Numbered from the stretch's first letter, positions 1 to 64,000 are shown. The stretch: 64,000 nt of DNA from Yuukianura sp. NJ FZ-2021 (GCA_046563655.1 CM102284.1:7192001-7256000), one strand, 5' to 3'. The notes: generated by a model from the sequence alone, not told the origin. Numbers and translations: made by a program.

Positions 1-3000
1 GAGCAACAGCTTTCCCTCAGGAGAAAGTGACTATTGCATAAAACTGAGCGGAAATCATTTTCGTAATTAGTCTTCAACTTTTTTTTCAAATTAACTTTAC
101 TACTTTCTCTCTAGCAATAATCGAACTCAAATCAGGAAATTGTTACGAATGCCAATTATTTTCTTTCTAACTGATTGATGGACGAAATTTCCAAAAACAC
201 GCAACTAGTGGTCATTCCCCTCTACCAAAATAAACTCAAACAACGAAAAAACCAAAACTTTCATGTTTTAGAAATAAAAAAAAACTCTTTCCAAAAAATT
301 TCTCTCTACAACACATGTCCCAAAATCAAAATCGTTCCCATTTTTCTCAGAACTATTTTTGTTTCAAAGTCTTGACTTTCCCAAGCGACATTAACATTTC
401 AGTAGTTTCCATTTCCAAATCTAATCCTACCTGCACAACTGCCACATCACCAGTGCAAAATCAATATTAACGTCATCTTCAAAAGCATCTCAACCTGAGA
501 AGAAAAGACAAAGAAAAGCAAGAGTCTCTTCTATAATAGGAATATGATGGAACAATTTCCCACCGAAATCACAGTTATGTAAATGCAAGAAGAGGCGGGC
601 GGAGAAGAGTCAACATCATGTAACTTCCACCACTACGACTTTCCTCCCAAATTGCTTTCACCCACAACCACACCAAAGAACTTTTCCTAAGGTAAAACCT
701 AGCCTAACCACCTTATTTCCAGGACCTGTCTTCAACCTGATACGGAGTCTCTGTTACTATCCCTAGTCAAATATAATTAGCGTACCTCCTCCAACCACAC
801 CAAATCCACTTTCTTCACTCCACTTTCAAAATGTCTTTGAAATTTTGGCAATAACGAAAAACGATCACCAACCAGCCTCCTCCACACTCCTGTCTCTCTT
901 CCAAATCAGAGAAGGAGACGAAGAAAGCTTTTGTGCATAATATTTTATACTGGATTAAGTTTCTCTTCTGTTCCATCTGCTCACAGTTTCCAGTGTTCAC
1001 TAATGGACCGGAGGAGACAGAAGCCAAGAGCTTATGCATAAAAACAGTCACACTCAGGGAACTTAAGCTCATGTGAAAGTAAACAATATTTCTTCAACGT
1101 AAAAAGAGGTGTGACGGTGCAAGACTTTGTTGCAGAAGGGGACAGAAGACATAACAAAACATAGGTGGCCGCTATTAGCAATGAGGATATCCTCAAAAAA
1201 GAGAAAAAGCGTTTTCGACCAATTTTTACCTGCTCTCACCTCGCTTTCCTAAAAAAAAGTCAGGTTCGGCCAAGCAAAATTTAATCTCTTTTCTTCGAAA
1301 AATCCTCATTTGAGTCCTCTATCCTCAAAATGTCGCGGAACTATGCATGACAAAGTTAATTTTTCTCCCTTCTTCAATTCCTTTTCATTTGATCCTTGTA
1401 CAGCCGTGGGCTTAGCGACATTCCCACTCTAATAAATGAGACAAGGAAGGGAGGGGGTTGAATTGAAAAGAAAAAAAGTTTGGCAAGGTGACACTTTTCT
1501 CCAATTTATTTCCTCACACCCCCGCCTTTCCTTCTTAATGAATTTATACACAACAAACACGATTCTTCTAGCATAAAAACAAAAAACAACAAAAACCCAT
1601 TTTCCTATGCACCACGCTTCAAAATACTTTTCAAACTCCACGTTTTCTATTTCCTTAGATTTTTTCCAAGCCTCGGCTACAAACAACACAGAATGCGAGA
1701 TTTATTTTTATTGGAAATCTGCATTTTTACGTCCTGTTCAAAGTGACAAGACTGAATCAGTTTACAAAACACAAAACTGTAACACAAAAACAGTTCTAGT
1801 GGCAGTAGTCAAATAAATAAAAGACAGTCGACACAGATCAGATGCATTTTGAGAGCGACAAGCCGTAAAATACTCCAAAAGCTTCAAAAAACAGTCGTGT
1901 AGACACCGTTTGAATAACAAACGAAAAAAAAAATCAAGTTCCACCGCCATAAAATCCACAAACCGCATCCACATCTTTGTTATAATATTTACAACTTCAA
2001 ACTTCTATTTTTGGCGGGACTTTCAAACTGTAATTTCCGTTTCTTTTCAAATTGGCACGAACAATACCGTACCGTTGACACTTTAACGCTTCTCCGCTCA
2101 CAATCCAGTTGGGGGTCATAAAAAATTACAATTTCAAAAATCAAAAACTTTTTTTTCATCTAAAATTTTCACTGTGAGTCTTTCTCAGCCGACTTTCACT
2201 CGGTCCATTTCGAAATAACTTACTTTTTCTTCATCTTTTTCTTTTTCCAAAAAAAAAGTGAACCTACATCTTGAAATTTCTGTAATTGAAATTTAATATT
2301 CCAACACCATTATCTCCAAAAGTCAAAACCATTACGCAACGTTAAGCCTCACAAACAATTTCCCGTCGTTCAGAAATTACGTCATCCGCTTCTCACCCTT
2401 TTACGTCAAGAGAGCCTCACCCTGTCAAGTTGCGAACAAAAGATCATGAAATCCGAGTTACCATTAAAGGGAAAATCCCCTCTCATCTTCTCACTTTGAC
2501 AGAAACTCCGTCAGAACGAGACTCCAGCACAACTTCAACGTTCTCCAGAAGTGGAAAAACATGGCTCAGGTAACAAAATTAAATTGAAGTGGATGTCGAC
2601 ATTTCCTCTACAACCAAAAAGTAATACTTGAAGAAGACCTAAGTTACAAATGAAACACAGACTTCCACAGAGTGGTTCCACTAAAGTTATCCGAAATTGG
2701 AAACCAAATGCCAGACTCCCAAAAAACAGCATTTTAGGCTCACTTTAAAAGCCAAACACTTCACAGCATTCTTCCCTCTTTTCTACACATCACTTTCCCC
2801 AATTCCAGCTTTCTTCCGCTTCAGAACCCCCTTTTGAAATAGAGTTCTTTCCATTTTGTTGCTAATTCTTCAATTATCAAGGTTAACCTATCCAAAATCC
2901 ACAAATCACACAAAACTTTTTAATAGCAAAAAATCACAATCTTCCATCAAAAAAGTTTGGCCATCTGAGTCCAAATTAGTCCAACGCTGTCATCAATTTT

Positions 3001-4908
3001 AATACTTTGTAGATTAGTTAAAGTTTAGTTTAGTTACAAAAAGTAGTTTGAAGTTGACAAGACCAAGATTTGGTGTGTCTTCCTTTCTCTCAAAGTGAAA
3101 CCTCAAAAAAGACATTATCTCCTGCCTGTCTCTCACCATCTTCTTGGTCTTCCTGAAAACTGTCGTCCAAAAAAGAAAAAGTGCGCCAGAAAACAAAGTT
3201 TTATAATAAAAGAAAACCATTTGTGAGGGGTTTATGTCGTCCAGATGAGCTCAATCTCAGTTGGAGATTGTTATTAGAAGACACGTAGACCATATCATGA
3301 AAAAGAAAAGAAAGTTGAGTCCTCTGACGTTCCCATCTAATACTTTTCTCTCTTACTTATCCAACTGTCACATGGACTCAGAGAGGAGAAATTCACCGCC
3401 GTAAGTCAACAAAGACTAACGGAACAAAGAATTGGCCAGAAGTTAGGCCAACCTAACCATTCTTTCAGACCAATGACATGTTGTGCCTCCAGAAAACAGA
3501 AAGGTACATACAATGGTCTTCCATGTCAACTTGTGATCTTTGCCAAAATTATCCAATTCCAAAATGCCACAACTGTCACACTCACAAATTCCAAACAAAC
3601 TTCAATACAACAACCTTGTTTACAAAAATTGTTTAAAAAATTGTCGAAAACTCAAGAAAATTACCTAAGCAAAAATGCTAGGCAGCCCGAATTTCAGAAA
3701 AAGTTCAAAAAACCAATCGATAAAACTTTCGCCTTTGGACTCACTCATTCTCCTGCAATTTCATTTTTATTAAAAGCAAGTGTGACCTTGGTTTCTACCT
3801 TGATGATTTACATAAGAAATTGTCACGCAAGTTGACATTTGACTTTCACTTCAAATTTTCAAAAAAAAAATCAATCAACCAGAAAACTTTATTGTGGCGA
3901 ATTGTCATCAGCTTGTTCAAGAAATTTCGAACAATTCAAACTCAATTCTCAATTTCGGCACCTAAAACTTAACATTTGAATTTTTTGGCTTTCCAAATCA
4001 GTCGAACTTTTGCCGTCGATGCTTCATCCGTTGAACTTTTTCCTCTTCACGTCCCTGCTAAAATGCCATTTAAGCAACACAACAGACGCAAGACAAAGCG
4101 CGTTTTAGTTCCCGCGGCTCCAGTTACAACGGAAAGTGAAAAGAGACAAACTTTCTCTCGTCCTGTAACCATGATACCCTACCGCTTCCATACTCAGCCT
4201 TCCCGCTGCCTAACGTCGAGACACCGAGTACAGCCCCTACCCTAACTTTCTCCCTCACCAAATCATTATCAAGCACAATGTTCAAGCAAGGAGCTCAAGC
4301 AACATGCTGTGCACAAAGAAAATGAAACCCAAACCCCAACGCACATCTATTTTCCACCATCTTCCAAGACACAAAGTGTATCAAAGTCCCTCCCTCCTCA
4401 TGTAACACATCCATAAAACATCTCCAACAACTCACCAAGCCCAAGCACCCATTACCCACTTCCATCACCCAACACTTCCTTATTAGACCAAAAACTCCAA
4501 TTACATCACAAACTCACACTTTCATCAGTTGCATTTAACATGAAAATAAGATGCACAACCCATATTTACATTCACATTTTACATTTATTATTATTACACA
4601 CTCAACTCTTAACTTTACTCTGCGTATGTCGTTGCATGAGCATCTGCATCTCTCAAAAAAACAAGCATCCGCTGTTCAGCCTTGATTTTCAAAATATTTT
4701 AACATTTTTCGGTCTTCCCCCTCAAAATTTCTGAGCACTTCAAAGGAAAAAGTGATACTTAGAAAAATGATTGGAAAACACATTAGCATCCCCATCCACA
4801 AAACCAACCCCAACAAAACGCAGTGAGACATTTTGGAATTTAAATGCAGTTTATTTTATCATTAGCGATAGGATAAGAGTTAAGAAGTTTAATGTTTTGA
4901 AGTTATGT

Positions 4909-5203
4909 TCAATTGCAGTAAGCTGAAGTACGAATGCAGTATCCGCCGCTGTAGCCATGAGACTGACAGCATTGAGAGACTTCCGCTGCAGTACGGCTGC
5001 AGTCAACACTACACGGTCCGCTGTAGGTTTGGGCCTCAGTGACTCCTGCAAATATTGGAAAATTTTTTGTATTTTAAATACCGTTTCTAGAATTAGAGAT
5101 TTGAAATTTGAAATTTAGCTAAGTGTATACAAAGTTACTTACCAATGGCCACAACAGCAACGCAGACCAAGACAGCCAAGAAGACGAAAAGTTTTGAAGC
5201 CAT
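4909..5203 (-). CDS. Diapausin-like secreted cysteine-rich antifungal peptide precursor (65 aa), nested in a large intron
   Basis: Exon 5203-5143 (ATG...ATTG|GTAAGT), 97-nt intron, exon 5045-4909 (TTGCAG|GA...TGA). Translation: MASKLFVFLAVLVCVAVVAIGVTEA-QTYSGPCSVDCSRTAAEVSQCCQSHGYSGGYCIRTSAYCN*. It has a signal peptide and a 40-aa mature peptide with C-x3-C-x9-CC-x2-HG-x-SG-x2-C-x6-C-N, matching the diapausin pattern (GPC...CC..HG.SG..C...YCN). AATAAA lies at 4855-4850. Confidence 0.9.
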
Positions 5204-5266
5204 TCTGTTGAAGTGGACGCGAGTTTTGGTTTTTCAGAGAAGTTTGGTTTTCGAAAGTAATTTTCG

Positions 5267-5394
5267 TACTGATTTACCTGGCTCGAAGTCGGTGGTTTTA
5301 TACCAATTCGACAGATGCTTGGGCCTACAGTTTTTGATTAATTTTGAAAGGAAACCGCCTCCTTCTCTAAAAATTTCTTGGAGTGGAAACCTCC
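5267..5394 (-). promoter_or_regulatory. Core promoter of the diapausin-like gene: TATA box, initiator, two kB-like motifs
   Basis: On the minus strand, TATAAAA (5302-5296) lies ~32 nt upstream of Inr-like TCAGTA (5272-5267). GGCGGTTTCC (5359-5350) and GGAGGTTTCC (5394-5385) resemble NF-kB/Rel sites. Confidence 0.65.
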
Positions 5395-8300
5395 AAAATT
5401 CAGAATTTAAAAAACAGGTTTTCCTTGTGTGCGTCACACCTAGCAATGTTTTTAATTTTTTGAATTGTCAGTACTATATTTGACACAAAATCGAGTTTTT
5501 GCCATTGAGTTGTATGGAAGTCTCAGTAATTATAGGCGTCAAACTAGTATATTCCAATTACCAATCTTGTTTAGTTACATTAATGATGATGGCGTTCATC
5601 ACTGAAGACGTCAACAACTAACCTTACGTTAATGTCATTAGTAAAACTGGTTGTCACCTAATGCAATGCTAACTAGCTCAAGATCTCTCCAAACTGGTAC
5701 ACAACAGTTCGTAGGAACTCGTTTTAAATGTTGTTTTTCAAAATTGGCATTTTCAAATTGCAAATTACCTTTTCCAAATATTTTTTTATCCTGCCATTTT
5801 AAATTGTTTTGTATTTGAGAGTTTTTGTTTATGTTATTCTAGATCCAACTTATGACTGAAATTTTGGTATACTGAAAGAGTTGTTCTAAACAAGGCCATT
5901 TGGCTGGCACAATGGAAGCAAATTATAAGAAGTCGTTTGCTTATCCCCGTGTTCGTAATTGAGGAGAAAGTAAAGATTATCCTCTAAAGTTTCTTATTTT
6001 GGTTTCTGAATTGTCAAATTTATGAAATTTTCCGTACCATGGAATGATATTTTTTTATGTGCTTTTTTATGCGCAATGTGCTTGTAACCAATCAACAAAT
6101 CATCATCATGGAAATTTTTCAAAACCGTAATACCGAAACCACAAAACCAATACAAATCTGTACAGTTCCACAACAGTTTTTTCTGGCAACCACTTTAAAA
6201 AAAAATCACTAAGTCTAACACTTTCTACATTCTTGTTGACATTTTAAATACTGCCAAAACTGGAATAATCAACAGCATGAGATTTTAATTTTAACTTTCC
6301 CTCCACAATTCTCTTGGTCCTCCTGACACTAAGGATGACAAAGTGAAATGAAAGCAACAAAAAAAAAGAACTAAGTCAGAAAACGCCCACTTTCCTTGTC
6401 AAATTACTCTCCCGTAGTTTCCTGTAGCTTCTCTTAGTCGAACCTACCCAAGCCAAGCCCGGATGAAATGAGGAGAGAAAGTAGCATATTAATTTCTCTG
6501 TCTGCTCTTTCCCCTTGGGAATAAACAATTTTACTTTGACAAACAGCAGGAGTAGGACCTTCTGTTTTAAGGAAATTAATTGAGCATTAACTGCATTAAT
6601 TATTCAGGGCACAAGTTGACAAGATCCGCTCCCTTGACACTCTGCCCTTCTCAGTTCAAAGTCCTCTTCCCTTAATATCTTTTGCACAAGAAACATTCAT
6701 ACAAAAGGAGTGAAAGTTCATGCCGCCCGATTTCTACACTCCACTTCCCTCGTCTTGAATATTTCATTAAAAGAGAAAGACATTAAAGAAACAAAAAATG
6801 AAATCCAGAAAATCAAGAATCTTTATGAAAACGGTCCCCTAACGCTCCGAATTTCCAAGGAAAGACGTCACAAGTGCAGACTCCGAAAAAATGAGTAACA
6901 GCTGGGGAATGCAGGGGATGAAGAAATAGAGAAAGCATGGGAAACTCCCATTTCTCAATCCAGATGAATCTGAGTCAACTGAAGTCAATCAGCTTCCGAA
7001 TGACAAAACGCACTTTGGCGCGAAACAAAATTTCGAGAAACTTTTTACTGAATTCAACAATTATTCAAGTCTCTGACAGCAGAAAACCCAACGGAAAACA
7101 ACTACGGAAAAATGATAAAGCGAACTTAAAATTCACAATTTTAGCCAACAACGAGAAAAAAAAATATCCACTGGCGCTAAATTCCTACATAACAATTTTT
7201 AAAAAATTCAAAACAAAATTACCGAGTTGCAGACTATTCGGCGTGCCAACTATTTGAAAAACAACGTAATTTTCACCAAAATTTGATCTCAAGCTCTCTC
7301 TCTCTCCATCTGACTTTCGCCATCTCCAACAGTCGAATTTTGAAAACAGTCCATTTCTCTCGTCCCCCGCGAGAAAGCGCTTCAACAACTTTGACTTTCT
7401 CCACAAACATTCAAAAGTTCCCGCTTTCTCCGCCAGAAAGCGCCAACTTTCTCCTTTTCAAATTCACGCTTATTTTCCCTCCAAAACGCCATCTCGCGCC
7501 ACTTTCTCTATTCTTACAGGCAAAAACCTCTCCAATCGACGTCATTTTCCATCTCTTTTGTCATCTTTCCTAGAAAAAAAAAGTTTTGGATGGAATTTCA
7601 TTTCATTTCAAATTCCCCGCCCTAACTTCGTTTTCGAATGGAAATATAGGCACTTTCTCCACTTTCTTTTTATAATTTCCCGTCTCTGCTGAATCCTCTT
7701 AAGGGCTAATTAATGCTATTAAGCTTCCTCCACTCCCTTTGTGCATCTCCAAAAATCCACATGCTCCCGTTCCCGCCTTTCTTCTCATTTTTAAAATGCG
7801 GCTCATGGGGACTTTTCTTTTGCCGCTTCCTATTTATTCACAGTATTCCAAAATCCGCCTTTCCACAAATTGAATGATGAAAATTCTAAGACGACCATCA
7901 TCATTTCACAACCAAAGGGAATTCTCACAAAGACGGAATTCAGTTTCATCCTTCACAAACTTTCAATCTGTTCTTCCGCTTTCTCTATCATAAACTCCAT
8001 AGAGAATATCCCTTTAGCGTTATGTTGTGTCTAGCCTAACCTAACTTTGCTTTCCCCAATGCAATAAGGGAGCAAGCGCCTCTAAAGAGAGAAAGATGAG
8101 CCTTCCAAAATTACTTTATTGAATAACTCCTCATCATAAACAGGCGACTCGGGCAGTATTGAGCGCTCAAACTCCTAGTTTGTTAGTAGCTTCAGCCTGA
8201 TGTTGGCAGCATGCTAGGATCAACCGAGAGAGATTGGCTTCTAGTTTTTACTAGATCCTTGCTCCCCATGGTGATGACAGGGGAGGATTAGAGTTCATCT

Positions 8301-28128: not shown

Positions 28129-29105
28129 ACATGAATAATCGATTATAAATCGTAGTAATTCACCTTTACATCTCCAACGAAAACTCCTAACAACAACCAC
28201 CGAACTAAAATGTGGAATTCGAAATGTCAATCTTTTTAAAAGGGCAAAGGGAAGATGATTTTTTAAAGTGATACTTACTCGGTTCACACTTTTTTGCCAG
28301 CAGATTCCCAGTCACTTATAACATGATTCCGGCAACACCAAAAATTGCAGAGTTAACGATGTAGTTAACTTTAAATTTTAAGGAATTGGTAACTATACTG
28401 TTCTTCGTGTACCTTTTACACCAGTAGACACAGAGTGCACTGGAAGGGTGGAGTCCCAAGATGCACTTTTTAAGGGAGGGGAGAGAGGGAGAGAGATCTG
28501 TTAGATTGTTGTAACTTGTGCTGGCTGTTTGCCGATTGTTCCTACTGCAGTCTCTCCTGCTGCCCTTGGTGTGATCTTTGGGAAGATGAGGGAAGAAGAA
28601 TAAGTTGCATTGAAGTACTGTGAGAGAGAGATGCACTTGGAAAGAAGAAAAGGTTCCCCGACTAGGCAAATCCGTCCTCGTCTAACCGAAAATCCCGAAT
28701 GGAGGCACTGAGTTTCTCAACCTGGAGGCCACACACCGCTCGCTGCTGCCTGCCAAGACCGATACTCAAAACCCCACAGCTCCAGACCAAGGGGAAAGTA
28801 GATTCTCCCGGGTACGGGTAGTAGTTCAGCCCAGACACTTTACTACGAAAATACTATCGCTGCCCTTGTAGCTTGTAAGTACTGGAGCAGGAGCTTTACA
28901 GACGAAATGATGTGGATCTTTCTTGTGAAAAGCCTCCTAAGCACAACAAATACTGCTGCTTCCATAAACATCACGCCAGATGCATTTAACCAAATGATCC
29001 TTTGTTGTCACCTTCCAAATATTCCGAGAACAACAATAAAAATTAACCTAAAGAAATAATCAAATGAGGCTGCTTACTTTCAAACACAAAAGACGTGTAA
29101 ACACG

Positions 29106-30821
29106 TTAAGGCGATAAAATAAATCCAGCACGAACAAGAATCCGGATGAATTCGGCAACTCCTGCCCATTCAGCATGGCAGCTACTGCTGATCAAACATG
29201 AAACGTCGCTGTCCGTCTCACGGAGGGCCTGAAATACAATGATTAGCTTTAGTTTGTCTGCAAATGATAATAAAGTTAGCTTTAATTACCAGCATTACCT
29301 CAAAAGTTTTGCAATTAGGATCCTCAGCTCGTTGAAGAACAATTTTTTCGATTTCTTCCCGTCGAAATGGAAATCGAACGAAGCATGCTCCAAGCTCAAG
29401 CGTGGACCGATCTTCCAGGCCGTGCAAGTCGTCGTTGTTCTGGAGGTTGCCGTTGGCATCTAGCAGCTGCTTACCAATGTCTTGACGCAAGAAGATACAA
29501 ACTTGACGGAGCTTGAGAATATTTCTGTTCTTGTCGGTTATATACGACGCATGTTGAAAACGTTTCAGGAAACAGTCGTACTTGGACAATTCTTCAGCTG
29601 GAACTTCCTGTTTTTCTAGAGATGGCTTCAAAATCGACTGGAACAGCTTGAGTACGTTGATCATGTTTCCAAGGTCGTTGTTTTTAGTAAATACGTTCGT
29701 AACGTTCATCACGATTTGAAGTAACTTGAGACGAGAGATGAACTCTTGAGAAACCAGAACTGATAATCCGGACTTGTAGAAATGCCATAATGGGCTCGTG
29801 TCATCCAGTCCGACCAGAAGCTGGAAAATTGCGTACTCCAAAATGGTGGTCTCTGCTGCGTTGTTTTCATCCGCGTTAGTTTGTCCAATGATCAAGTCCA
29901 GAAATTCCTTGACTTCACGCAACAGGCAGGAGTCTTTGATTCTGACAGTGGTGTTAATCAAAGCCATGACAGCAGCTTTCGGGTTTTGGAAGGTCGTGAC
30001 GTAAACCTCGTCTAAAAACTGAAATCAACAAATTAAGATAAAAGTGATGGTAGTCAGTTCTGTTTTGTAGTTTTAGGGCATACCGCTTGCCGCTCCGATC
30101 CAGTCATGGTGGAAATAGACCTCATCCGCATGCGCAGGGAGCCAAGAATGCTGGACAAGTTATCTTTTTCGTAAGCAGTATGCAATCCATCAACGTAGGC
30201 TAGCTTCACGATATCGTTGCGTCGGGTTCGATGCGACTCCGAAGTCAAAACTGAAAAGTCCCCTTTCTTTAATTGTTCCAGCAGCTCCTCAGTCGTTACT
30301 TCAATTTCCTTCGGTTCAGCCTCTGGCAGTGGTGTAGCGATACATTCTTTCTGAATATACAGAAAGCCCGGTTCCAGTCTAAGCTTTGACACAAACCAAT
30401 CGTAATCTTCCTCGGAGATAGACGTATCAAAACAAGTTGGAGTAATTCTATCGAGGCACTCTTCGTCAAGCATTTCCTCAGCATCCGGATGACTGGAGTG
30501 AAGGAACAATGTTAAGTGAATTGCCATCCGTTCCTCGTTGCCACATTTTTGTAAAAGCATTGCTACAGCTTTTGCCACCTTCTCCTTGGATAACTTCCCG
30601 GAAACTAACAACCATTTCAATATTATAACTGTGTATATTTATTTATTAGTAAAAGTAATGCTGGCGTAAGCAGTGTTCTGGTCCTTACCAAGCTCCCTGA
30701 AATATCTTTTAGCCAATACAACGTTTACAGATGAAGCAGCCTCCCCCCAACTGCATTTGCTTTTGTTCTCTTGAAAGAATCTGAAAGCCGCAGATCGTTT
30801 ACGTTTGTCCGAAATGTCCAT
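29106..30821 (-). CDS. Uncharacterized ~500-aa Leu-rich, probably alpha-helical protein (4 coding exons; 3' end uncertain)
   Basis: ATG 30821 (MDISDKRKR...). ORFs 30639-30932, 30054-30620 and 29218-29967 join in frame through short GT-AG introns (TG|GTAAGG...ACACAG|, GCG|GTATGC...TTTCAG|, GAG|GTAATG...TTTCAG|). The last exon ALRETDSD...FILSP* stops at 29108-29106. A 5'UTR intron spans ~30978-30856. Confidence 0.75.
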
Positions 30822-32285
30822 TGTCTCAGCGAATCCGCATAAAGTCGGTCCTCTCCTACCCAACAAATATGTAAATGAATAGTAGTCAAGGATCAACGAC
30901 ATCGAGAACGGCACAGCAGTGCCAGTTGACAAGACAGAACCACCCTCTGGTGGACAGTCTTTTCATGTTTACTGTTTACCTGTATATCCGGTTCCGGAGC
31001 CGGACACTGAAAATTACTGCCAAATCAGCAACCTCCTTTCGCACTAATCAGAATCACTCACAACAGTACCACTACCGGTACTTAACGAAACAGTGTATCG
31101 TTAAATCCTCCGATAAATGAGCGAACGATGACAGCTGACACGCACAACAACACTTGAATGGAAGAACGATGATATGACGTTCACGTTTCTTGTTTCACTG
31201 GAATCCCAAGAATGTCACACATACGCAGTCACGTGATAAACCTGCTCCATATTTGTTCCATCATCATATAAACGTTTTTCTGACGTTATTAACTTCAATT
31301 ATAGGATCACAATCAATCCACTAAATATTTAGCACATTATATTATTGTTAGTTATACTATTTTAAGAAATAATAATCACATTTAAATACAATATTAATAA
31401 AATATAAAATTAAACCAAGAATAATACATTGCCCAAATCAGTGTGTGAGCTGTGCAATGTGCTGGGAGGCATTTTTTGTTTTACTTTGCAGCGCCAAAAT
31501 TCAAACTGGATTCCCTGAAAACTGACTGATCTCTCTTTTGTTTAATGCATAATTCTAAAAGTTTTCTAAACGGTCGAAGAAATCCCCGTCATTTATGGGC
31601 ACTTAAGATTTAAATTTATAAACATTTTATTCATAACTAATTAGTTACTGGCTTTTTTAACTTTAGTTAGTTACTTACAATTTCTAGATAATTAATTTAA
31701 TAGCAAGCATTCCAGCAAACATTTAAACCTTGAAGATATGTCATTTACGTTTTCTATCATTCGCTGTATGACCATGTGTGTTGATCTATCAAAACCGGTG
31801 GCGGTACGTGTGCGTAAATAACTTTCTGAGCAACTAGAAAAAAATATTGTAGCATTGATATTTTTTTTATGAATTTTCGCTTCCCGATTTGTCATCTCTC
31901 TCATCTGTCTTCTCTTTAATCTTTACGGACTTTGTGGTATCCTCAATCCTCATCCTGAACGATTACGAAGATTCTGGATAACTAGAATAGTGATTAGTCT
32001 AATTAACCAAATTTCGATTAATTTTATAGAATTCAGATCGAAAGTCGTTGGAACTACGTGGATTCAAGCCATAGAGAAGAGAAGGTGATTGACCGGGGTC
32101 ATCTGATGTCTCAGCTGTAGTCGAATGTTATCTCATTAGGGATTTTAGGTACGGAAGACCTGTTATAAATTATTGACGTTGTTAATAAGCTAACGATACA
32201 TACGATCCTCATTAATATTGACACTATTTTATTTCAGGCGTAGAAAGAAAAGGTAGTCAAAACGGTTCTCTAGTGAAACGCAAAA

Positions 32286-33767
32286 ATGAAGCAACCTGTA
32301 GCAATACTGCGATCTGCCAGAAGGAACTTTCCGTTTTTCCAAGAACAAATGAAAGCGTTAATTGGCAATGCCAGTGCTTTGGTGAAGTTTGTCTGCCTGA
32401 TTGTCATATGCTCGTACCTCCTGTCCTACTACCCACCAGCGATAGAGGAGTTAAGTGTCATTCCAGGACATCTTCTGCCTCCATCATTCCGAATCTGGAC
32501 ACTGTTCACACATCCGTTTTTGGAAATTCATTTGTGGGAAGTCGTTGTGGATATTATAACAGTTGGACTTTGTGGTAAGTACTACGTAGTAGAAAAATAC
32601 AACAAAAGGTCAAGCATCAATTAATTGAATTGTGTATTTCTCAATTTATAGGGAAACTGATTGAGCCGTTATGGGGAAGCCGTGAAATGTTTGTGTTCTT
32701 CGGAATAGTAAACCTGGCAGTCGTCCTGTTCTGTGTAGTTTACTATCTGCTGTTGTACGCAGTTACCTTCGATCCAAACATTTTATTTGAAGTCCGGATT
32801 CATGGGTTGTCGGGATACATCGCCGCTGTCTCTGTTGCCGTGAGGCAAATTATGCCAGATCATGTCATTGTTCGGACACCGCTTGGAAAAATTACCAATA
32901 GGTGAGAGCAATATTTGAATATAGCTCTAACAAGATATTATTGTTATATTTTCCTTGTTTCTTGCTAATGATTTCTTTACGTTTCAGAAACGTCCCGCTT
33001 TCAGTACTGGTGTTCTCAATCATCTTATGGGCAATTGGTTTGCTTGAAGGAACTTTTTGTACAATGTTCATGGCCGGAATACTTTCGTCTTGGGTTTACC
33101 TCAGGTTCTACCAGAGGCACTCCAATGGAACAATCGGAGACACAACTGACTTCTTCACATTTGCAAGGTAAGTTATTAACTTATGAACTTAAGTTATGCA
33201 AAATGTTGGATCTAGAAAATCTGCATCGGTTCGGATTCTGTATTATTCCTTATGTTATATCTTTAGCTTCTTCCCCAACGTTCTCCAACCTCCAATCTCT
33301 GTCGTATCAAATTCCATTTTCAAAATGCTGCGGAAGGCGGGACTGTTCAAAAATCGAGTGAGGACATTTGCTGATGCCAGTAGTGCTCCATCCTCAATCC
33401 AGATAAATATTAGTAGCCATCAATCCGACGCAGACAGGCGAAAGTGAGTCACCATCTCAATAATAATGTTTATAACTCGATTAATTAACTCAATTTGATT
33501 AATTGCAGACAGAAGGCCCTGAAATTACTAAATGAACGTCTGGGAATGAAAAAAAGTGAAGCAACAGTTCCTCTTCTTCAGTCAGAAAGTCCACTGGACG
33601 ACGAGCCGACTAGTATCTCTATTCCAGCATCGTCTGGTAGCAACGTCGGAATGCATCGAAGTCACAGTGCTGGATCAAATCTCGTCACATCCGTGTCAGC
33701 CTCTCCGAGTAGTAGTTACATTCAAACACCAGCGGCACGCGGTAGTCCTGGAACGCCCTTGTTATAA
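32286..33767 (+). CDS. TMEM115: Transmembrane protein 115 (rhomboid-like Golgi protein)
   Basis: Five exons (~32286-32574, 32652-32902, 32988-33167, 33267-33443, 33510-33767). Motifs IWTLFTHPFLEIHLWEVVVD, GKLIEPLWGS.EM..FF.IVN, RIHGLSGYIAA, SWVYLRFYQRHSNG..GD, SFFP..LQP and DADRRKQKALKLLNERL are typical of TMEM115. Confidence 0.92.
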
Positions 33768-45147: not shown

Positions 45148-46678
45148 TTAGTCCAAAAATGGGATTTTAGCCATGAACCAGAAGCTGTTGTACAGAAAAG
45201 CGGCAACAGATCGTAATGCACTTCGTGGCGGAGTGCGGTAAATTGGAAAGTAGTCTGTCATGGACATGAGCATTTCAAGTGCAATGTCATGCGAGGTCAC
45301 GTAGAGCCCTTGAAGTCGCACCGGAAAGAGCTGACAAATTGCCGATTTTGCAAGAAATTCAATCAGGATTCCTTGGTCAACAAACATGGCTCCAACGGTC
45401 ACCAAGCATCCGAAGACCAAGAACGCACCGACACCGGATTTGAGAGAAACTGCAAAAACAAGAAAAAAAAATGTAGAATTTCGAAAAAGCCATTTTTTTG
45501 GTAATTTGAACAATTTTGAAAACTTACGCATTGAAATCTTGTGAAGCGACCAAGCATCCTCAACACTTGACTCCTGAGATTCAGATTCTTCGATCTCTGA
45601 ATCGACGCGAGGAGGATCATCGGCTTCAATCTGCGTGAGATCCATACATGACAGTTGACGTTCAAAACTTGGCGAAGCTGCAAACCAAACGAATTCCAGT
45701 TTTCAAAATTTTGAAACAAGTTTTTGAAAAAGTTCATAATTTGAGGCTAACCTTCGATTCGGATGTCATTTGAGCTGTAGATATCCGTTGGATCGAATTC
45801 ACCTGACTGGAAAAGTTCACTTTCAAGGAGTTCCTGCAATGTCAACGCTGGATTCTCACGCTGTGCCGGTTCAGCATCGTCGGCTGCTGCGGCGACATTT
45901 TCTGGAGCAGCGATTGGTTGAATACGGGACGACGGCGTTGGTGAAATTGTGTTGAGACTCTTTGGTTTTCTTGGAGATGCGCTGAAGATAGACGATCGTT
46001 GGGAAAGGACTGAAACGAGAGAAAAGTGAGAAGTTAAAATAATTAAAAATCTTTAGTTACGAATTAATTAAAATAATTTAGTAAAATTGAAATTTAAGTA
46101 CTCTTCGTAGGATGCTGTCCATCGCCATGACGAAGTGCAAGTTGAAGTGCCACGCAGAAGTACGCAAAAGTACTGCAACCATCGGGACTCCAGTCCTCTT
46201 CAGGGTTGCATAACGTGAGCAGTTGCTCATTCAGCGGATTACCCACCATGTTAAGGTAATCCAGGTCGCTCAAGTTTCCAAAAGACATTGGAAGGTGAGT
46301 GATCTGGAAAAACAAAAAATTTGAAATTTGTGAAACCAGAAGTTTGAAAGCAATTTAGAATTTTACCCGGTTGAAGGCAAGACAAACGAACTTGAGTCGA
46401 GTCAGTTTGCCAAAGTTTTCTGGGAGACTTTCCAACTTGTTCCTGGCGACACTCAGTTCTTCCAGCACTGGAAAGTGCTTTGCGATACTTTCCGGGAGAC
46501 TTCTGAGTTTATTGTCATCCAGCTCCAGGACCTTGACATTGGCGTAGACTGGTAACTTTGGTAACTCTGTCCAGTAGTGTGCATTCCAGCAGCAGATTTC
46601 AGTCGGAGGAGGTCTGGAAGTCGCCTGAGCTTGGACCTTAGCTTCCGGATTTTGTTCCGTTTTCAAACATGTAGCCAT
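45148..46678 (-). CDS. Leucine-rich repeat protein with C-terminal transmembrane segment (LRRC59-like topology)
   Basis: ATG 46678. LRRs: VKVLELDDNKLRSLPESI, LEELSVARNKLESLPENFG, LKFVCLAFNRITHLPMSFG, LDYLNMVGNPL. An acidic linker and hydrophobic GVGAFLVFGCLVTVGAMFV follow. Five exons join in frame to the stop at 45148. Confidence 0.82.
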
Positions 46679-46900
46679 TGTGAATTGCTCAAGATCAAAA
46701 TTACAGAATTGTTGCCACCAAAGTTTGTCCAAAATGAATTTGGAACGTTTCCGTTCTTCAACTATTCCGGAGAAAGACGGATGTTGTAAGTAAAAGTAAA
46801 ATTTTACTGCGATGTTCAAACAACGAATCCACATTCGTAAAATAACGCTGAATTTTGATGAAGAATTTTAGGTAACAAATACTTTACTTGACAACGCTGC

Positions 46901-53220: not shown

Positions 53221-55374
53221 ATGGGGAGTCCAGCAGCCCGTTTTTGGGATGTCGCCGGAGTAAGTCGTACTTTTAATCCAAAATTTTGAATTTCATGCTG
53301 CAATTGGTTTGTTTTACATTTTCAGGGAAATGTCAAGGAGAGGATATTTAGACACTTGAATTTCACTGACTTGAAGATCTGTCGCTTCGTTTGCAAATCT
53401 TGGAACGCTGTCGTCGTGTCATCATCCCCCTTCAAATCTTCAGTTCTCTACGTCTCCCTTGGTCCAAACAGTCAAAATATATTGGAAACAACAAAAGTAC
53501 ACTGGAACCACATTCGGTTTGAACTGTTCGATGCCTCCACCTGTCCAGAACTACTTTGGAAACAACTCCAATCAACAGCTAGCGCGTTCTCGTACATTCA
53601 AATCTTAGAATTCAAGCAATGTTTCATCAGTTGGCAACTTTTTAAGAAACTGATCACGCTCACCTCTTCGTCTCTGCGTGACCTGACATTTCAACGATCA
53701 ATTTTCAAAGATGCTGAGCACTTGCCACCACAAGCGTCACAATGTCCCACTCTCAGACTCAATCATCGCGAGCACGAACAATTCTTACGAAGAATTTCAA
53801 ACATCCAAGCACTAAGTGTTTCAGAAGTTGGAGAATTGACTGGAATTGTTGAAATTTTGGAAAAGATGATCCTGTACTCAGCATCTACGCTGATTACACT
53901 CAAGATTGAATACAAAACTTCGCAATGTCTTCGACCTACTGACATTGTACGGTTCCTGCAAGTACTTTCAGAACTAATCGTTGGGAACAAAGTGACACTT
54001 AAGAATTTGATTCTTAATATCTGGAATCATGAAATCCTGGAAGATTTTCTGCCGTTTGTCCTTGCACCGATGGAATCTTGTTCACCGCATTTGAATTTGA
54101 GAGTTTTCAAATTGGCTCAACCAATTCCGGACAATGCTAATGTTACGATCAACGTCAACTCGAGTCGCTTTCTGCTTCATTTGGCCGAATTCCTCCGAAC
54201 GCAACGACAGCTACAGACTCTAGCGTTTCCAAATCTAATTGGTTTTGGAGTTTTTGAAACCAGGAGATGGTCGGTTCTGGACAGCACGACTAAGCATTTG
54301 AAGGAACTGCACGTTCCAGGTACCCACTTTTCAAAAAATGAAAAATTTTCAAAAAATAGAAGTTTTTTGAAAATACTTGACATGTTTTTGTTTTGTTTTT
54401 AGGAGCGATGTACCTCAGGCGAAACACATTCAAGTCCTTCCAGTGCCTGAAAACGCTTTTCATTGGAGAGAAATTTCTTGGAAAAAACTCCGGAACGTTT
54501 CTGCATCCAACGAAATTCAATCTAGATCGCGCTGGAATTGCAAAGAAAAACATGACCAAGATCCACTCACTGTCAGTTTATGCTCCGATTGTCTACGAAA
54601 GTGGAAACATGTTTCACGTTCTAGAAAAACTGCCAAATCTGACCACTTTTGAGTTCAATGGCCTCCGACCTGTGTTCAACGACAAGGATGTCCAAGCTGT
54701 TATCAAGTATCTCCCAAAGTTAAGGCATTTGACCATCGTCCACTGTGACTTGATCACGGACGTCGGAGTTACTGGAATTCCTCTAAAAATTTGTGAGGAT
54801 ATGATTCGATACGGAACGCTTTATCTTGACGATATCAAAGGCAGGAAGAAGCTAGGAAAAGCCGGATCAGCGCCATTATCGGATCTCCGAAGTCTCCTTT
54901 CCCTTGAATTGGTTGGAAATTCTCAAATCACGGATGTTGGCATAAAATTTGGATTGGAATTTCAAGATTTACGCAAAATTCAGTTACCGTTTTGCGAAAA
55001 AGTAAGTAAAAAGATGCTGTTTGAAACAAAACTTTTTCAATTCAGCTGAAAAAATCATACTCTTCCATGTTAATTGACTTTTTTAGGTAACTTCGTGGGG
55101 AATCGAGCAACTTGGACTCCAGAACGTGTGTCTGGAATCGCTGATTCTAACTGGAGCTACTGCGGAAACGGCTATCGGTCTAACAAAAGTTACTGCAGTT
55201 CACAACCGACTTGTGAAAGATCAATGCAAAGTTCAAGTAATTAGAACCAAAGCTCATCATAATTTTTTAAAAACTTTACAAATTGGTGTTCTGTTGCAGA
55301 CGATAAGGAAAACGGAAAGAAATCTGATTCTCCCTACACTTTTACATGCGATTCTGTGGACCAATGGTAATTGA
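53221..55374 (+). CDS. F-box/LRR-repeat protein
   Basis: Exon 53221-53259 splices to 53326, giving F-box VKERIFRHLNFTDLKICRFVCKSWN. C-terminal cysteine-containing LRRs: LRHLTIVHCDLITDVGV, LELVGNSQITDVGI, LPFCEKVTSWGI. The 3' end is uncertain. Confidence 0.85.
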
Positions 55375-57465: not shown

Positions 57466-60247
57466 GATTTAATTCCTCCGGTCAATTAATACGGCTTTAA
57501 TCGATTAATAACTAACGTCAAAAATCACAAAGAGTTCAATGAATTTGCTAATTTTTGAGAAAGATTTGATTTTTTTTCGACTTTTCCCAAAAAAAAGTAA
57601 AATTTGAATTTTGTCAACTCATTCCGATTTAGCGCCTTTTCTGAAAATTTGGTGTTCTCAAATTTGCCACACGTAACGACTTGTCACTTGTTATGTTAAA
57701 ACAATAAGAAAATTCAAAATTCAGGAGAAAGTTGTCAAAATATTCACTTCCGGTTTAAACTTTTCCAAATTAATTCTATTGTAAAACCTCATCAGTTAAC
57801 TGGAAACTTATTGTGTAATTAAGTTTAGGAGGTCGGATTTTGATGGCATTATGTGTTATCAGTGCTCTAGTTTTCGTTATTTAGTTCACCGCTTCCTTTT
57901 CACGCTCTTTTAAACAGGAAAATGGTACACCTTTTACCGTGGTTTTCAATTGAACTCGAGTTTTAACACAGAAAACCGTATTTTAAAAAAGTTAACCCGA
58001 ATTTTCTCTTTTATTTTTCAAAAGAGAAAATTTCTTTCACCACCAAGCCAATAAGAACCGTGGCGCCAATTACTTTCTTTCCTAATGAATTATTCACGTC
58101 AATTACTCCTAATTATCCAACTCCGGTACTAACGTCAATCATTTCCTTCTCCTTAAAGCCCGGACCAGGTCACCGGAGAGATTTCAGAGGTCAAGGGCCC
58201 TGTGTGGATCCTTTACGGTACTGTTTGTGTGTGCATTAAGCCTGGTTGAATGGAGGTCATGGCTCATGTGCGAAGGACTTGGAAGGATGAAAGTGCTCTG
58301 GGCGTGGGTTGTGTATAGATGGGCACAGAAGGGAGAAAAGCCTAACTTGTCTCAGTACATCAACCTTACGAGAGGAGCCACCAGCTAAAGTAAAGAGTCC
58401 ATAGTAAGTTCCACTATCTGTTGTGAACTTATAGGAGCCAGGGAGGGCATAGGACACATTACAGTAGTCTCTCATCTCAGAAAGTGGCAGAAAGAGGGAA
58501 GAAAGCTCAGTGAAGAAATAAGAAGATGCAAGTAAGGACGTAATTTACACTTTACTTAATTACTCTCACATCGGTGTCACCATTCATACAGAAGAGAAGA
58601 ACAGTCATTTCGAATCCAAGGGGAAAGGTGGTCCAACTTGGGATTCGAACTGGGGCTGAACTTGAATCAAGACGACGAAAAGACGAAATCTGGTAGTAAT
58701 CTCTGAAATCAAGTGTGTATCTGTTTTGTTACTCGTTTACCGTTCATCAACAGTACATTTGTTTTCATCCGGGGAGTATAACTTCGAGCACCGTGCGTAG
58801 TGCGTAAACGGCGGCTCTACGCTGGTGGCTGGTGCTGGCCGTACTGCAGTCGCAAAAATCGATTTACGAATTACGATTGGAGTGTGCCGTGTATCTGTGT
58901 GGTGAAAACAAACTCCGAGAGCGGAGATTGTATACGAGAAAGGTAAGAAAAAGTGTCTCTGATTACTACTTTTAGTTTAAGTATTCAATTGATTGTTATT
59001 AAGATGTTATAATAGTAAGTAATTAACATGTTTAAGTAAAGGGTTAGCTTATTGGCTGTGACCTTTGCCAACTTTGCGCCTTAGGTTGACTTTCACGAAA
59101 AATTACATGAGCTATATCATATCCGTCAACACAGCATTACGTCTTTCTAGGCTAAACAAACCAAAAACAATAGATTTAAATTGAAACCTGTTATTTTCGT
59201 TGTGCGCGATTGATGGATGAAGTAAGCAATTCATCGACAAGCCGTTAACGTTTTACTCACGTTTTATTTAAAGAAACATTGGATCCCTTTCGATACCGAT
59301 CATAAATTTCTAACCGGACTCAACGTTTAGGAGACAGTGACAGTATTAAGTTAAAGGTCAAATCAAATCAGCCAATCAGTTACAATAGTAATTTATTTGA
59401 GGTAATGCTTGACTACGGTCAAGTATGTTTAGGCTGTTAGCGTAGTAATCCTAATCGTTACGTAAATCGTTACAACGCACTTTTCATGATGTTTCATACG
59501 ATGCGGTAAAAGTGGAGACAAGACAAAGTATTTTCGTTGGAGCAGAATTGTTAACGTTATGATTTAGCAATGAAATTCGGAGAGTTCAGAGTCTGAGAAA
59601 TACCACAATCAGTGTTTCTAGGTTCTAATTTAACTGACTCATTGGTAAATGGTTGATAAGGTTCTGGCACTTGGAGTTTGTTCGTGTTTAAAAAGTGCTG
59701 AGAACGGCGAAGTTCAGTGTTAATGTTTGTTTAGAAGTGGTTTCGGATGACAACTTCGACTGTGTCTCTATCAGTCTCCGTACATTTTCATTTTCCAGGA
59801 CTCAAGTTCTGGTCCTTGGTCTGGATTAAAACCTCCCTTTAGTTTTTAGTTTCTTATTAAACCATCCATGACTCCAAATTCCGCTTAAATCTCTAATTTA
59901 AAATAACTTTTCGTTTTACTCCCGTGACAGATTTGAACCAACGTATCGTCGAATCCTGCCGGGCCTTACACTACACCGACGAAACGAAGCCTCCTCTTCT
60001 TGTCACGCTGACTTTTCCGTAGACCACAAATTGCCTTCTTCTAAAAACGTCAATTTGCGTGTGCAAGGGAAGAAGTTTTTTGAGGGCGATCGATAGCATT
60101 TTGTAAAGTTGAAGCTATCTCATCCACTATTCCTCCCGGGAAATGAAGAAAGTCTTCCTTCGTCTTCATTCGCCAATTCAGATCCTTCCGACAACTGAGG
60201 ACCATTAATCAGTCTCCCTCAATCACTCAGTCACTCCTCGGCAGACA

Positions 60248-61606
60248 ATGGGCAAGGCAAAGGCAACCACTTCCAAAAAGAACTCTCCCCTCAAGATTTC
60301 TGCTTCACTGTTTACAAAGCGGAAGGCTAAACAGTCAAGCAGTGATTCCTCGTCGGCTGAAGACTCTTCTCCAGTGCCCTCTCCGCAAGTGACCAAAAAG
60401 AAGCCACTCAAGGCTCCACCAAAGTCAAAAACCAAAGGAACTCCAACTTCCAAGTCTCCTGCATCGACAAAGTCAAAAGCCGCTGCGTCCCAGAAGGGTG
60501 AAAGCAAAAAGAAAGTCGGGGCCAAGAAAACTCCAGTGAAGAAAAATGAGGCTGACAACAAAGGAACCAAGGGGACACAAGGAACAAAAATGACCAAGAA
60601 TAAAGAGAAAGTCGCTGCTGGAAGCGCCAAGACGAAAAAAGAGAAAGTAACACCAAAAGGCAAACGAAAAACGAACGTTCGGAGTCGGACGAGGAGTCCA
60701 AGCACGAGCAATTCCGACACATCATCGTCTTCTGACGACACTTCATCATCTTCTCCACGGTCACGAAGTCCACCAGTACGACGAGCAGCATCCAGCAGTT
60801 CAAATGCTAAAAAGGGCCCTGTCAAGAAAACTCCCGCCAAAAAAGTACTTCGGAAAGACGATGACAAGAAACAAACCAAAACGTCCGCAAAAGACAAGGG
60901 GAAAGCGGCCAAGAAAATTGCAGCGGCAAAACTCAGTTTGGCCAAGAAAGGCTCTCCGGTCAAATCTAAAGGAAAACAGACCAAACCAAAAGCAAAACTG
61001 AAACGAATGGCTTCACTCAATGCAAAAGCAATGCTAGAAGCAACTTTTAGTTTTGAAAGTGCCGAGAAACGGAAGTCACCCGCTGGAACTCCAATTAAAT
61101 CACCTTCCAAATCTACCGCCACGACATCAACTCAGGACGGCCTGTCGTCGTCTATATCCACAGGAACTGATCTTGAATCGCTGCAGAATCCATCAGCCTT
61201 TAAGCCTTTGACGCTTTTATTTGCCTCAGAAACGGACTTTCCAAAAGAGTCAAAGAGTCCAAAAGCCAGCGGAGAGAGGAAGAGAAAGTCAACTTCAAAG
61301 GGTGGCGAAAGTCCTGGGAGGCGGGAAAGTACAACGAGCAATGGCAGCTTGAATTTGGGAAGTCGGAGCAGTGGAGGTGACGATACTGGCAGTATTGGTG
61401 CTCTTTTAAAAACGGAAAAAGAGAAAAGTAAAAGTCCCGCACCGAGAAAGAAACCAAAAGTAACGTCTTCTTCAGTCTCGACGTCAACTTCGCCATTTGA
61501 CTCTGGAGAAGAAACGAAATGCTTGCAGCATGGAGGCATGGATGACCTTACATACGATCAGCATCTCGGCATGATCAGAGATCTTGGTTTGCAGCAGCAG
61601 CATCAA
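60248..61606 (+). CDS. BAHD1: First coding exon of a Lys/Ser-rich nuclear protein, BAHD1-like (partial; continues beyond window)
   Basis: Low-complexity K/S/T/P-rich ORF containing LKRMASLNAKAML, a motif I associate with BAHD1 family N-termini. Donor CAA|GTGAGT at 61606. The 5'UTR has an exon ending at 58942 (AAG|GTAAGA) and an acceptor at ~59930. The BAH domain itself is not in the window. Confidence 0.55.
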
Positions 61607-64000
61607 GTGAGTTTCAAATTTTTATAAATTCTTTGCTTTCTAGATTAGAAACTCTACTTTTTTAAAGTTGAAGTGTTTTTCAAAATCATGAAAATCAGAC
61701 TTTCGAAGTCGTTTTTGACACGGAACTGAGCTTTTTCTGAGTTTTCTAAGCTTGGGCTGCCTAAAAGTTCGTTTCACTCCATCTTGAAGTTGACACGTAA
61801 TGAGAATTTAATGAAGCCGTGCCAAGGTGGTTACTGGTTTTGTTTGCTTTTGCCTAAAGAAGTGATGGGTCTCAAGGGAAATGAGGTCAGGAGAGAACAG
61901 GAAACTGTTGAAATTTAGACGTTGAGAAGCTTAAGGGCTCCTCCCGGGAACAATTAGGTTTAAAACTTATTTTCCAAGGTGTTAGAGCAGCCATTAGAGC
62001 TAAACCTGCCACTTCGTTCAGTTCAAGTGGATTATTGATTCTTGCGACGCCTTTTTAGACTGAGTCGAAAGTGGAAAGTCGAATGGAAAGTGTTACATGG
62101 AGGAAGAGAAAGTGAGTCAGGGTGAAAGTCTGGGGAGTTTGGAAACTTAAACTGAAAAGTAAATGTATTTTCCCTGGCGTCTTTTTCAATTTTTTCAAGT
62201 GGAGACTGGAAAATTTTGAATTTGTCATCAAAATTTCCCGAAAAGGAAACTTAGAAAGTTGAGCTGCTTTCACTTTTTGTTTAAAAGCTAGATGCCGGAT
62301 GCGTTTTTATTTTTTCGAGTTGTGGGTAGAAAAGTGTGAATTTAGTTGAAAAATTGGCTTGCTGTTTAACGTTTTGTGTTGGAATGAACGAAAATTTTTG
62401 TGACTTTGTATATTTTTCCGGATTTTTTGGTTTTTGTTTCATCCCCAGTGTGTAAAGGGGATGCTGGCAACACGAGTTAATTGGTGTACGGTGAAAGTCT
62501 GTTTTTTGAAACTTTTTTTTGGAAAGTTTTTCATTGCTTTCTCCGCAACGGCGGAGGGGGAAGGTGAGGAATTTGGGAATCCCACGGGCAGTATTTTTTT
62601 CCCGTTGCTTCAGTTTTTCTCGCTGGGAGTGGAGGTGGGTAGTGGGAAAGAGGAGTGTGATTTGTACTGAATAATTTATTCATTTTCTACTCCCTAGCTG
62701 TTCTTCTCCTCCTTGTTTGTATTTCTCTATTTCTGTTTCTTCTCCTGAAATTGTTGTACCCTTAAGGTTTTCTTTTCCTTTCTACAAAGGGACGATTTTC
62801 TTTGAAAATCTTGTTCGAGAGTTTTGGCCCTCCTCCCTGCTACTATTTTTCCCCTGCCCTGTGATGTTTAAGCCGAAGGGAGGAAGGTGGATTTTTTTTA
62901 ACGAAAATTGTACTCGGAAAGGTACGATTTTGAAAATTTCTCTCTCTCCCGCTTACCGTATGGTTCTTCCGAGTTCGGTTTAGGTTTGGGCAGAACTCTT
63001 CTCTTTACTAGCCGAGTGCTACTAAAAGTTATAAAACGGCGGTGGATGAAGGGAAAAACTTGAAAAACGACTCTCACATGTCTTATAATTTCCCTACCTT
63101 ACCTTCTTCCCTTCCTGGGAAATTGAAATGGTAAAGAAAGCGGCGATTATAACAGGAAATGAAAGTTTTTTTTCTGAAAGTTTTGTTCCGTCCGGTTTTT
63201 ATTATTTTTCTGGTGGAGTAATTTTGATTTTTTTGAAGTTTTGAATGAGGAGTGTCTTACAGCAAAATAAAAAAAAAACAACAAAAAAACAAAAAAGAAA
63301 AAACAAAACTGAACGCAGAAGTGAAACTTTGAGACATTGAAACTTTGAAATGGTATTTTTTAGGACTTTCTACCCAAACGAGATTTTATTCAAACTGTTT
63401 CGGAAGATTCTGAATTTTGCAGTTGATGGTCAAAATTTTAGGTGGAGTTCAAGATGTTAAACATCTTTCGTTTTTATTGATATATTTTCCTATGGTTTTA
63501 TGTTGTTTTTTTTTACGTTTTTGTGGCTAAAAGTAATTTGAAGTAATAGTATTACTGCCTTTCCTTTGCAGAGTTAAGGGATTGCGAAGAGGAAGTTTGA
63601 AATTGTGCTGAAGTGGCTGGTTGGCTGGCAACTCTCTCTTTTTTTGAGGAGATTATTGACCTTTTCTCACTCCCATTGTTCTGTAGTAGGGAGAGATAGT
63701 GTTAGGATGTGTTTGGCTCCTTCAACAAGTGGCAATTCCTCTTTCCAAGTCTCTGTTTCACTTCCTTGCTTTACTTATGCTCCCTACAGCTAGTGGCTAA
63801 CTTAGTTAGTCTTACAAACTACTCAATTCTGATGCTTTTCCCTCTGAAATGAAGGCACAGGAGCTCCCTGCCTTTCTAAACCAGTAAAAACCTACTTTAC
63901 TTTGGGATATAACCATTTTAACTTAAGCAAAACCCAGCCAAACGTAACGGTACAATTCTCCTTTTTTCACAACTTTCTAATCCTCTGGTTTCAACTGTTG

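Follow-up and report, generated by a model that had tools for sequence, protein, structure and literature searches.

A two-exon gene for a predicted diapausin-family peptide in a springtail-like genome

The 64,000-nucleotide (nt) stretch analyzed here (CM102284.1:7192001-7256000 of assembly GCA_046563655.1; hereafter, the window) carries near its left end, on the minus strand, an intact two-exon gene with its own core promoter and polyadenylation signal. We consider it quite likely that this is a stand-alone gene of a springtail-like genome, and that its 65-amino-acid (aa) product is the precursor of a cysteine-stabilized defense peptide of the diapausin family (PF08036). A first-pass annotation of the same stretch had described such a gene, with two exons, a phase-1 intron, a TATA box, an initiator and a polyadenylation signal. 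All of these elements were located, and the coordinates that it gave were all correct; the strand, which it left unsaid, is minus.

Gene structure and core promoter

The elements of the gene are the following.

5296..5302, minus strand: TATA box TATAAAA, 32 to 26 nt 5' of the initiator A
5268..5272, minus strand: initiator-like TCAGT, with the A at 5270 as the predicted transcription start
5204..5270, minus strand: predicted 5' untranslated leader of 67 nt (from the predicted start site), containing no ATG
5143..5203, minus strand: coding sequence (CDS) of exon 1, encoding Met and the hydrophobic core of the predicted signal peptide in 20 codons, with base 1 of a Gly codon at its end
5046..5142, minus strand: intron of 97 nt, phase 1, GT..AG, 24% GC
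4909..5045, minus strand: CDS of exon 2, encoding G-V-T-E-A, with which the signal/pro region ends, followed by the 40 aa of the predicted mature peptide and the TGA stop
4912..5031, minus strand: predicted mature diapausin-family peptide, 40 aa, PF08036 at 29.3 bits
4850..4855, minus strand: polyadenylation signal AATAAA, 54 nt 3' of the stop

The open reading frame (ORF) starts with the ATG at 5203-5201 and ends with the TGA at 4911-4909 (minus strand). Joining of the donor (G/GTAAGT, at 5143/5142) to the acceptor (TTTGCAG/G, at 5046/5045) yields a spliced CDS of 198 nt, i.e., 65 codons plus the stop, whereas unspliced read-through of the donor meets a stop codon two codons into the intron. 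The GC content of the intron is 24%, versus 52% for the CDS. Composites of a TATA box, a gap and TCAGT occurred twice in the window, versus 0.17 expected from shuffles; the other TATAAAA-gap-TCAGT composite lies at 31403-31442 (plus strand), upstream of a TMEM115-like (DUF1751) gene. At the 3' end, the AATAAA at 4855-4850 is the sole AATAAA within 4780-4910, and an ATTAAA is also present at 4893-4888. Since the promoter and polyadenylation signals are combined with a signal-like exon, which consensus splice sites would join in frame, and with the cysteine motif described below, a chance arrangement is excluded.

The predicted peptide

The product of exon 1 opens with M-A-S-K followed by 16 hydrophobic residues, and in the G-V-T-E-A that begins exon 2 small residues occupy positions -3 and -1 ahead of the predicted cleavage. 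The spliced translation thereby bore out the signal-like N terminus and the 40-aa, six-cysteine mature peptide of the first-pass annotation. Cleavage after V-T-E-A, as predicted from the sequence, is supported by the solved beetle diapausin 2e2f, residue 1 of whose chain falls on the Gln; if cleavage occurs there, Gln is residue 1 of the mature peptide, as had been proposed, matching the start of the beetle peptide as purified. A pyroglutamate at this N-terminal Gln would be plausible chemistry. The mature peptide of 40 aa has its cysteines at positions 7, 11, 21, 22, 32, and 39 and ends in Y-C-N, and its predicted mass is ~4.24 kDa before disulfide formation and any conversion of the Gln to pyroglutamate. 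It contains two Lys plus Arg, two Asp plus Glu and one His (isoelectric point [pI] of 6.7; net charge of 0), and so does not carry the net positive charge of cationic antimicrobial peptides (AMPs).

Family assignment

Against a Pfam gathering cut-off of 25 bits, PF08036 (Antimicrobial_6, "Diapausin family of antimicrobial peptide") matched the exon 2 product with 28.9 bits and the mature peptide with 29.3 bits, and the exon 2 product covered profile positions 4-39 of 39. The best match among all PDB sequences was 2e2f, "Diapausin" (E = 7.1e-5; 26.2 bits), for which query residues 9-45 aligned with residues 4-41 of the chain (2e2f_A), reaching the C-terminal Asn and pairing all six cysteines. 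Beyond the cysteines, the two sequences share G-P-C, C-C-x-x-H-G-x-S-G and the terminal Y-C-N.

HMMER searches over 1.84 billion representative proteins returned two matches at E ≤ 0.001: a 124-aa two-domain protein from a Logan assembly (P0003; PF08036 at 69.8 bits) and an 88-aa "hypothetical protein" of the tardigrade Hypsibius exemplaris (P0004, OWA50848.1; PF08036 at 34.6 bits). BLASTP against the Hypsibius exemplaris protein gave 17/31 identities, and the best identity found among the representative proteins was 50%. In the three-way alignment, P6, C7, C11, R13, E17, C21, C22, H25, G26, S28, G30, C32, and C39 are invariant. A word-based homolog search with the exon 2 product in a protein set of 5.8 billion clusters yielded no candidate with words in common. 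As judged by these searches, neither the gene product nor a close relative is present in the protein collections covered.

The cysteine spacing, C-X3-C-X9-CC-X9-C-X6-C (gaps of 3, 9, 0, 9, and 6), fits the collembolan diapausin motif, C-X3-C-X9-14-CC-X9-11-C-X6-9-C, as given in the available text of the springtail survey (PMC10051947). This published motif occurred once in the six translated frames of the window, at this gene, and in none of 50 shuffled windows. Likewise, the 65-aa precursor and the 40-aa mature peptide fall inside the ranges stated in that text (63-85 aa and 39-64 aa, respectively). An AlphaFold2 model built on a shallow, three-row alignment had a mean predicted local distance difference test (pLDDT) score of 77.8, with one helix at residues 15-24 and a two-strand hairpin at 30-33/36-39; the diapausin fold consists of helices and a triple-stranded sheet.

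The first-pass annotation had called the peptide diapausin-like and proposed BLASTP and HMMER searches as a check; the similarity was found in the profile search, and the claim holds on the PF08036 score above cut-off, the 2e2f match, and the fit to the collembolan cysteine motif and lengths. Because both profile and cysteine motif match, and because springtails are already known carriers, the gene is, on its sequence, a new and divergent member of a known family. Its near-neutral charge, to which the same annotation drew attention, is real but not distinctive: the closest PF08036 relatives have net charges of 0 (tardigrade protein) and -2 (both P0003 domains). As these two relatives are likewise uncharged or slightly negative, charge neutrality does not bear on diapausin membership.

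The question of a host gene

The first-pass annotation had also placed the gene inside a giant intron of a host gene with the same orientation. We regard such an arrangement, in which the peptide gene would perhaps compete with a host transcription unit, as unlikely. The gene does sit in ~29 kb (1-29 kb) without other recognizable coding sequence, another gene on the minus strand is present further upstream (29.1-30.96 kb), and host exons past the left end of the window are conceivable. However, neither Pfam searches of ORFs nor a codon-bias scan revealed a recognizable host exon in 1-4850 or 5400-29000. More specifically, none of the 16 ORFs from 1-29 kb that were compared with Pfam matched a family (one sub-threshold score of 14.7 bits versus a cut-off of 27), and the codon-bias scan, trained on the clear exons of the window, gave weak, strand-ambiguous signals only. 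On the minus strand, 1-4850 contains two ORFs that reach 90 aa or more; no Pfam family scored over its cut-off for either, and neither reached the codon-bias threshold. The upstream minus-strand gene has short introns and an in-frame last exon of 40 aa, and because this exon ends in a TAA near 29.1 kb, the gene need not extend 24 kb further. Moreover, the peptide gene has a TATA box and initiator and a polyadenylation signal of its own. Thus, nesting in a giant intron was not borne out, given that the window yielded no host exon to the left or right of the gene and that the closest gene on the minus strand apparently terminates near 29.1 kb; the statement that the peptide gene shares the strand of its host is equally unsupported, as no host gene was found in the window.

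Apart from the peptide gene, the left ~29 kb of the window are coding-poor, and its right half is gene-dense. No repeats of at least 40 nt were found in 1-29 kb. Three short tandem arrays were found, and the window gave no Rfam matches.

Sequence variation and possible paralogs

Sequence variation was assessed in DNA contigs from four runs belonging to two studies. Exon 2 was identical in the contigs of all four runs, whereas the flanks and the intron do vary. Five variants were seen in the exon 1 CDS, four synonymous and one causing V15F in the hydrophobic core. Summed contig depth, which is not a copy number, was near the flanking level over 4917-5010 (the mature part of exon 2). It rose several-fold over 5011-5057, 5105-5292, and 5387-5433, intervals that take in the signal exon, the leader and the core promoter as well as a patch further upstream, and numerous short variant contigs lie there. 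This pattern hints that there may be other genomic copies that have the signal exon, leader and promoter in common and differ in their mature exon. Within the window, tblastn with the spliced product recovered only the gene itself, the next hit (E = 0.16) falling in an ORF devoid of cysteines. An alignment-based scan of metagenome contigs for related loci gave 66 pattern matches and a scan of viral contigs gave 14, none of them confirmed, and an exact 24-base pattern from exon 1 had no match in the metagenome contigs.

Given these hints of several related copies, and the fact that some members of such families are usually dead, the gene could be an unexpressed or decaying copy, a recent diapausin duplicate that still looks intact. 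We find this very unlikely: the gene has an uninterrupted ORF with all six cysteines, perfect splice sites, and intact promoter and polyadenylation signals, while exon 2 is identical across the two studies and the exon 1 variants are mostly synonymous. An intact gene is the reading that we retain.

A paired motif upstream of the TATA box

Two decamers of the form GGMGGTTTCC, spaced 35 nt apart, lie just 5' of the TATA box.

5385..5394, minus strand: distal GGAGGTTTCC motif, ~115-124 nt 5' of the initiator A; also fits GGRRNNYYCC
5350..5359, minus strand: proximal GGCGGTTTCC motif, ~80-89 nt 5' of the initiator A

The pattern GGMGGTTTCC, which was picked post hoc from sequence already seen, occurs twice in the window versus 0.21 expected, both times 80-124 nt 5' of the initiator. 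The pair may be a regulatory element. GGRRNNYYCC is the generic kappaB-type consensus, and we take the distal copy to resemble the kappaB sites of insect immune genes; in the window, the generic pattern itself is not enriched (12 found versus 9.3 expected). Taken together, the TATA box, the initiator and the two motifs suggest regulated, possibly immune- or stress-inducible transcription.

Neighboring genes and taxonomic placement

The other recognizable features of the window are the following.

29088-30962, minus strand: gene with ORFs at 29218-30962
32579-32905: TMEM115 (DUF1751) exon, 108 aa
39361-39735, plus strand: animal heme peroxidase exon
46355-46867, minus strand: leucine-rich repeat protein
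53290-55049, plus strand: F-box protein, long ORFs
60209-61627, plus strand: 472-aa Lys/Ser-rich ORF without a Pfam family

In the gene at 29088-30962, a short intron is followed by the 40-aa exon and the TAA near 29.1 kb. Its three ORFs matched no Pfam family, and its 268-aa ORF had no homolog among longer proteins. A protein-language-model look-up returned weak leads to importin/exportin-type repeats (score of 0.92; recognition of 1102, which is low).

The TMEM115 exon had 68 homologous proteins. Among the named ones, that of the springtail Orchesella cincta was the best match (68% identity), ahead of crustacean and insect proteins at 53-66%; identities of 89% and 74% were seen for unnamed proteins from metatranscriptomes. 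A tree was inferred for the exon with 22 of these 68 proteins: the four highest-ranking unnamed ones, that of Orchesella cincta, and 17 further named ones. The window exon fell in a six-row clade with Orchesella cincta and the four unnamed rows (support of 99/88), apart from the 17 insect and crustacean rows; its own row is long-branched because the ORF was taken from stop to stop and includes non-exon residues. By TMEM115, a collembolan placement is most likely.

Discussion

On the evidence above, we propose that exon 1 supplies a cleavable signal peptide, by which the precursor would enter the secretory pathway, and that cleavage after V-T-E-A would free the Gln-first peptide of 40 aa. Its six cysteines would form three disulfides, presumably in the family pattern C1-C3, C2-C5, C4-C6. 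By analogy with characterized diapausins, the peptide might be secreted to the hemolymph or gut and act against fungi, probably through a specific target such as a Ca2+ channel. The net charge of about 0 makes charge-driven membrane lysis less likely and favors binding to a specific target of this kind.

Several points weigh against the reading of the locus as a diapausin gene of a springtail-like genome. The PF08036 score is just ~4 bits over the cut-off, and the signal peptide was assigned by inspection of the sequence. Contigs of the four runs cover the intron without joints, although, being DNA, they are silent on splicing. The springtail placement draws on a single TMEM115 exon of 108 aa. 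In contrast to the collembolan AMP sets as described in the available text of PMC10051947, the peptide is not cationic. Finally, a Foldseek search of the PDB with the 40-residue model from the three-row alignment gave no match at E ≤ 0.001; CS-alpha-beta (cysteine-stabilized alpha-beta) scorpion toxins and defensins formed its top rows (best E = 0.096), and 2e2f was absent among the matches listed. We read this outcome as a lack of power, given 40 residues and a shallow alignment, rather than as evidence against membership.

That the peptide belongs instead to another small disulfide-rich family (CS-alpha-beta defensin, gamma-thionin or scorpion-toxin-like), its Pfam match arising from cysteine spacing alone, is extremely improbable: the weak Gamma-thionin match (15 bits, E = 0.032, under the cut-off of 25.1) and the toxins and defensins that head the Foldseek results (E of at least 0.096) are all below significance, the peptide has non-cysteine residues in common both with 2e2f (in G-P-C, C-C-x-x-H-G-x-S-G, and Y-C-N) and with the two PF08036 proteins (P6, R13, E17, H25, G26, S28, and G30), and its adjacent CC pair without a C-x-C element is at odds with the CS-alpha-beta pattern.

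The diapausin reading could be carried further, to a proposal that we hold to be rather unlikely as a whole: the locus would encode a functionally diverged, neutral, pyroglutamate-capped diapausin from a family whose members in this genome have signal exon, leader and promoter in common but unrelated mature exons, and the role of the peptide might lie in metal tolerance or in action on an ion channel and not in that of a classical antifungal. Because PF08036 occurs in a tardigrade, in nematodes and in hexapods, and at this locus, an old ecdysozoan origin with many losses would then be favored over insect-to-nematode or virus-borne transfer. If true, a common signal exon joined to unrelated mature exons would be the accelerated-evolution pattern of toxin and AMP families.

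As springtails are already known to carry diapausins, the locus alters no current picture. It adds one more divergent, uncharged member to a small antifungal family that attracts some interest as a source of antifungal leads and in the debate over the horizontal transfer of its genes, and it illustrates that short two-exon peptide genes escape ORF-based views. A study of the whole family could take up three side observations: the tardigrade member, the two decamers 5' of the TATA box, and the hint that a signal exon and promoter are used in common while the mature exon is unique.

Comparison with known diapausins

Diapausins are also known in beetles and moths. According to the available text of the survey by Pradhan and Engsontia (2023; PMC10051947), they occur in all five springtails examined (Holacanthella duospinosa, Orchesella cincta, Sminthurus viridis, Sinella curviseta, and Anurida maritima), which carry 23 genes at 1-10 per species; the same text cites activity of the Manduca peptide on yeasts and Beauveria. 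In the Orchesella cincta genome, diapausins are described as expanded, lineage-specific and tied to cadmium tolerance via a proposed block of Ca2+ channels (available text of PMC4987106). The gene described here resembles collembolan diapausins in its six-cysteine motif, its length ranges, its signal peptide and, by the TMEM115 placement, its host taxon, the likeness to the published springtail sequences being one of motif and lengths rather than of aligned residues. It differs in charge, with a net charge of 0 against AMPs described as cationic in the part of PMC10051947 available.

The best match among solved structures is the diapausin (diapause-specific peptide) of the beetle Gastrophysa atrocyanea, 2e2f, with which the peptide is co-linear from G-P-C to Y-C-N. 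Only part of the non-cysteine residues is in common, the beetle having CCRAHG where our peptide has CCQSHG, and the loop between the fourth and fifth cysteines is one residue shorter here than in 2e2f. For the beetle peptide, both Ca2+-channel block and antifungal action are cited in the available texts of PMC3175473 and PMC4987106.

Nematode diapausins belong to the same Pfam family, have the same cysteine motif and likewise form multi-gene families in soil animals, although in a different phylum. The available text of PMC10506718 counts 116 genes in Diplogasteroidea, Mesorhabditis belari, Oscheius tipulae, and Acrobeloides nanus, some of them two-domain, an architecture also seen in P0003. 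For Pristionchus, transfer from insects, possibly through an iridovirus, has been argued (PMC3175473, as far as its available text goes). The patchy distribution and horizontal transfer invoked in the first-pass annotation gain no argument from our locus, since all five springtails examined carry diapausins; nothing at this locus calls for horizontal transfer.

The closest named sequence is OWA50848.1 of Hypsibius exemplaris, which has a signal-like N terminus, a net charge of 0 and the PF08036 domain in common with the peptide. It is an uncharacterized protein that differs in its annotated length of 88 aa and in its last loop, which is longer by one residue. The sole paper containing both "diapausin" and "Hypsibius" in the literature searched mentions diapausin once, in connection with nematode Pfam domains. 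Diapausins of tardigrades may therefore be undescribed in that literature, and OWA50848.1 stands beside the two-domain protein P0003 as one of the two closest PF08036 relatives of the peptide described here.

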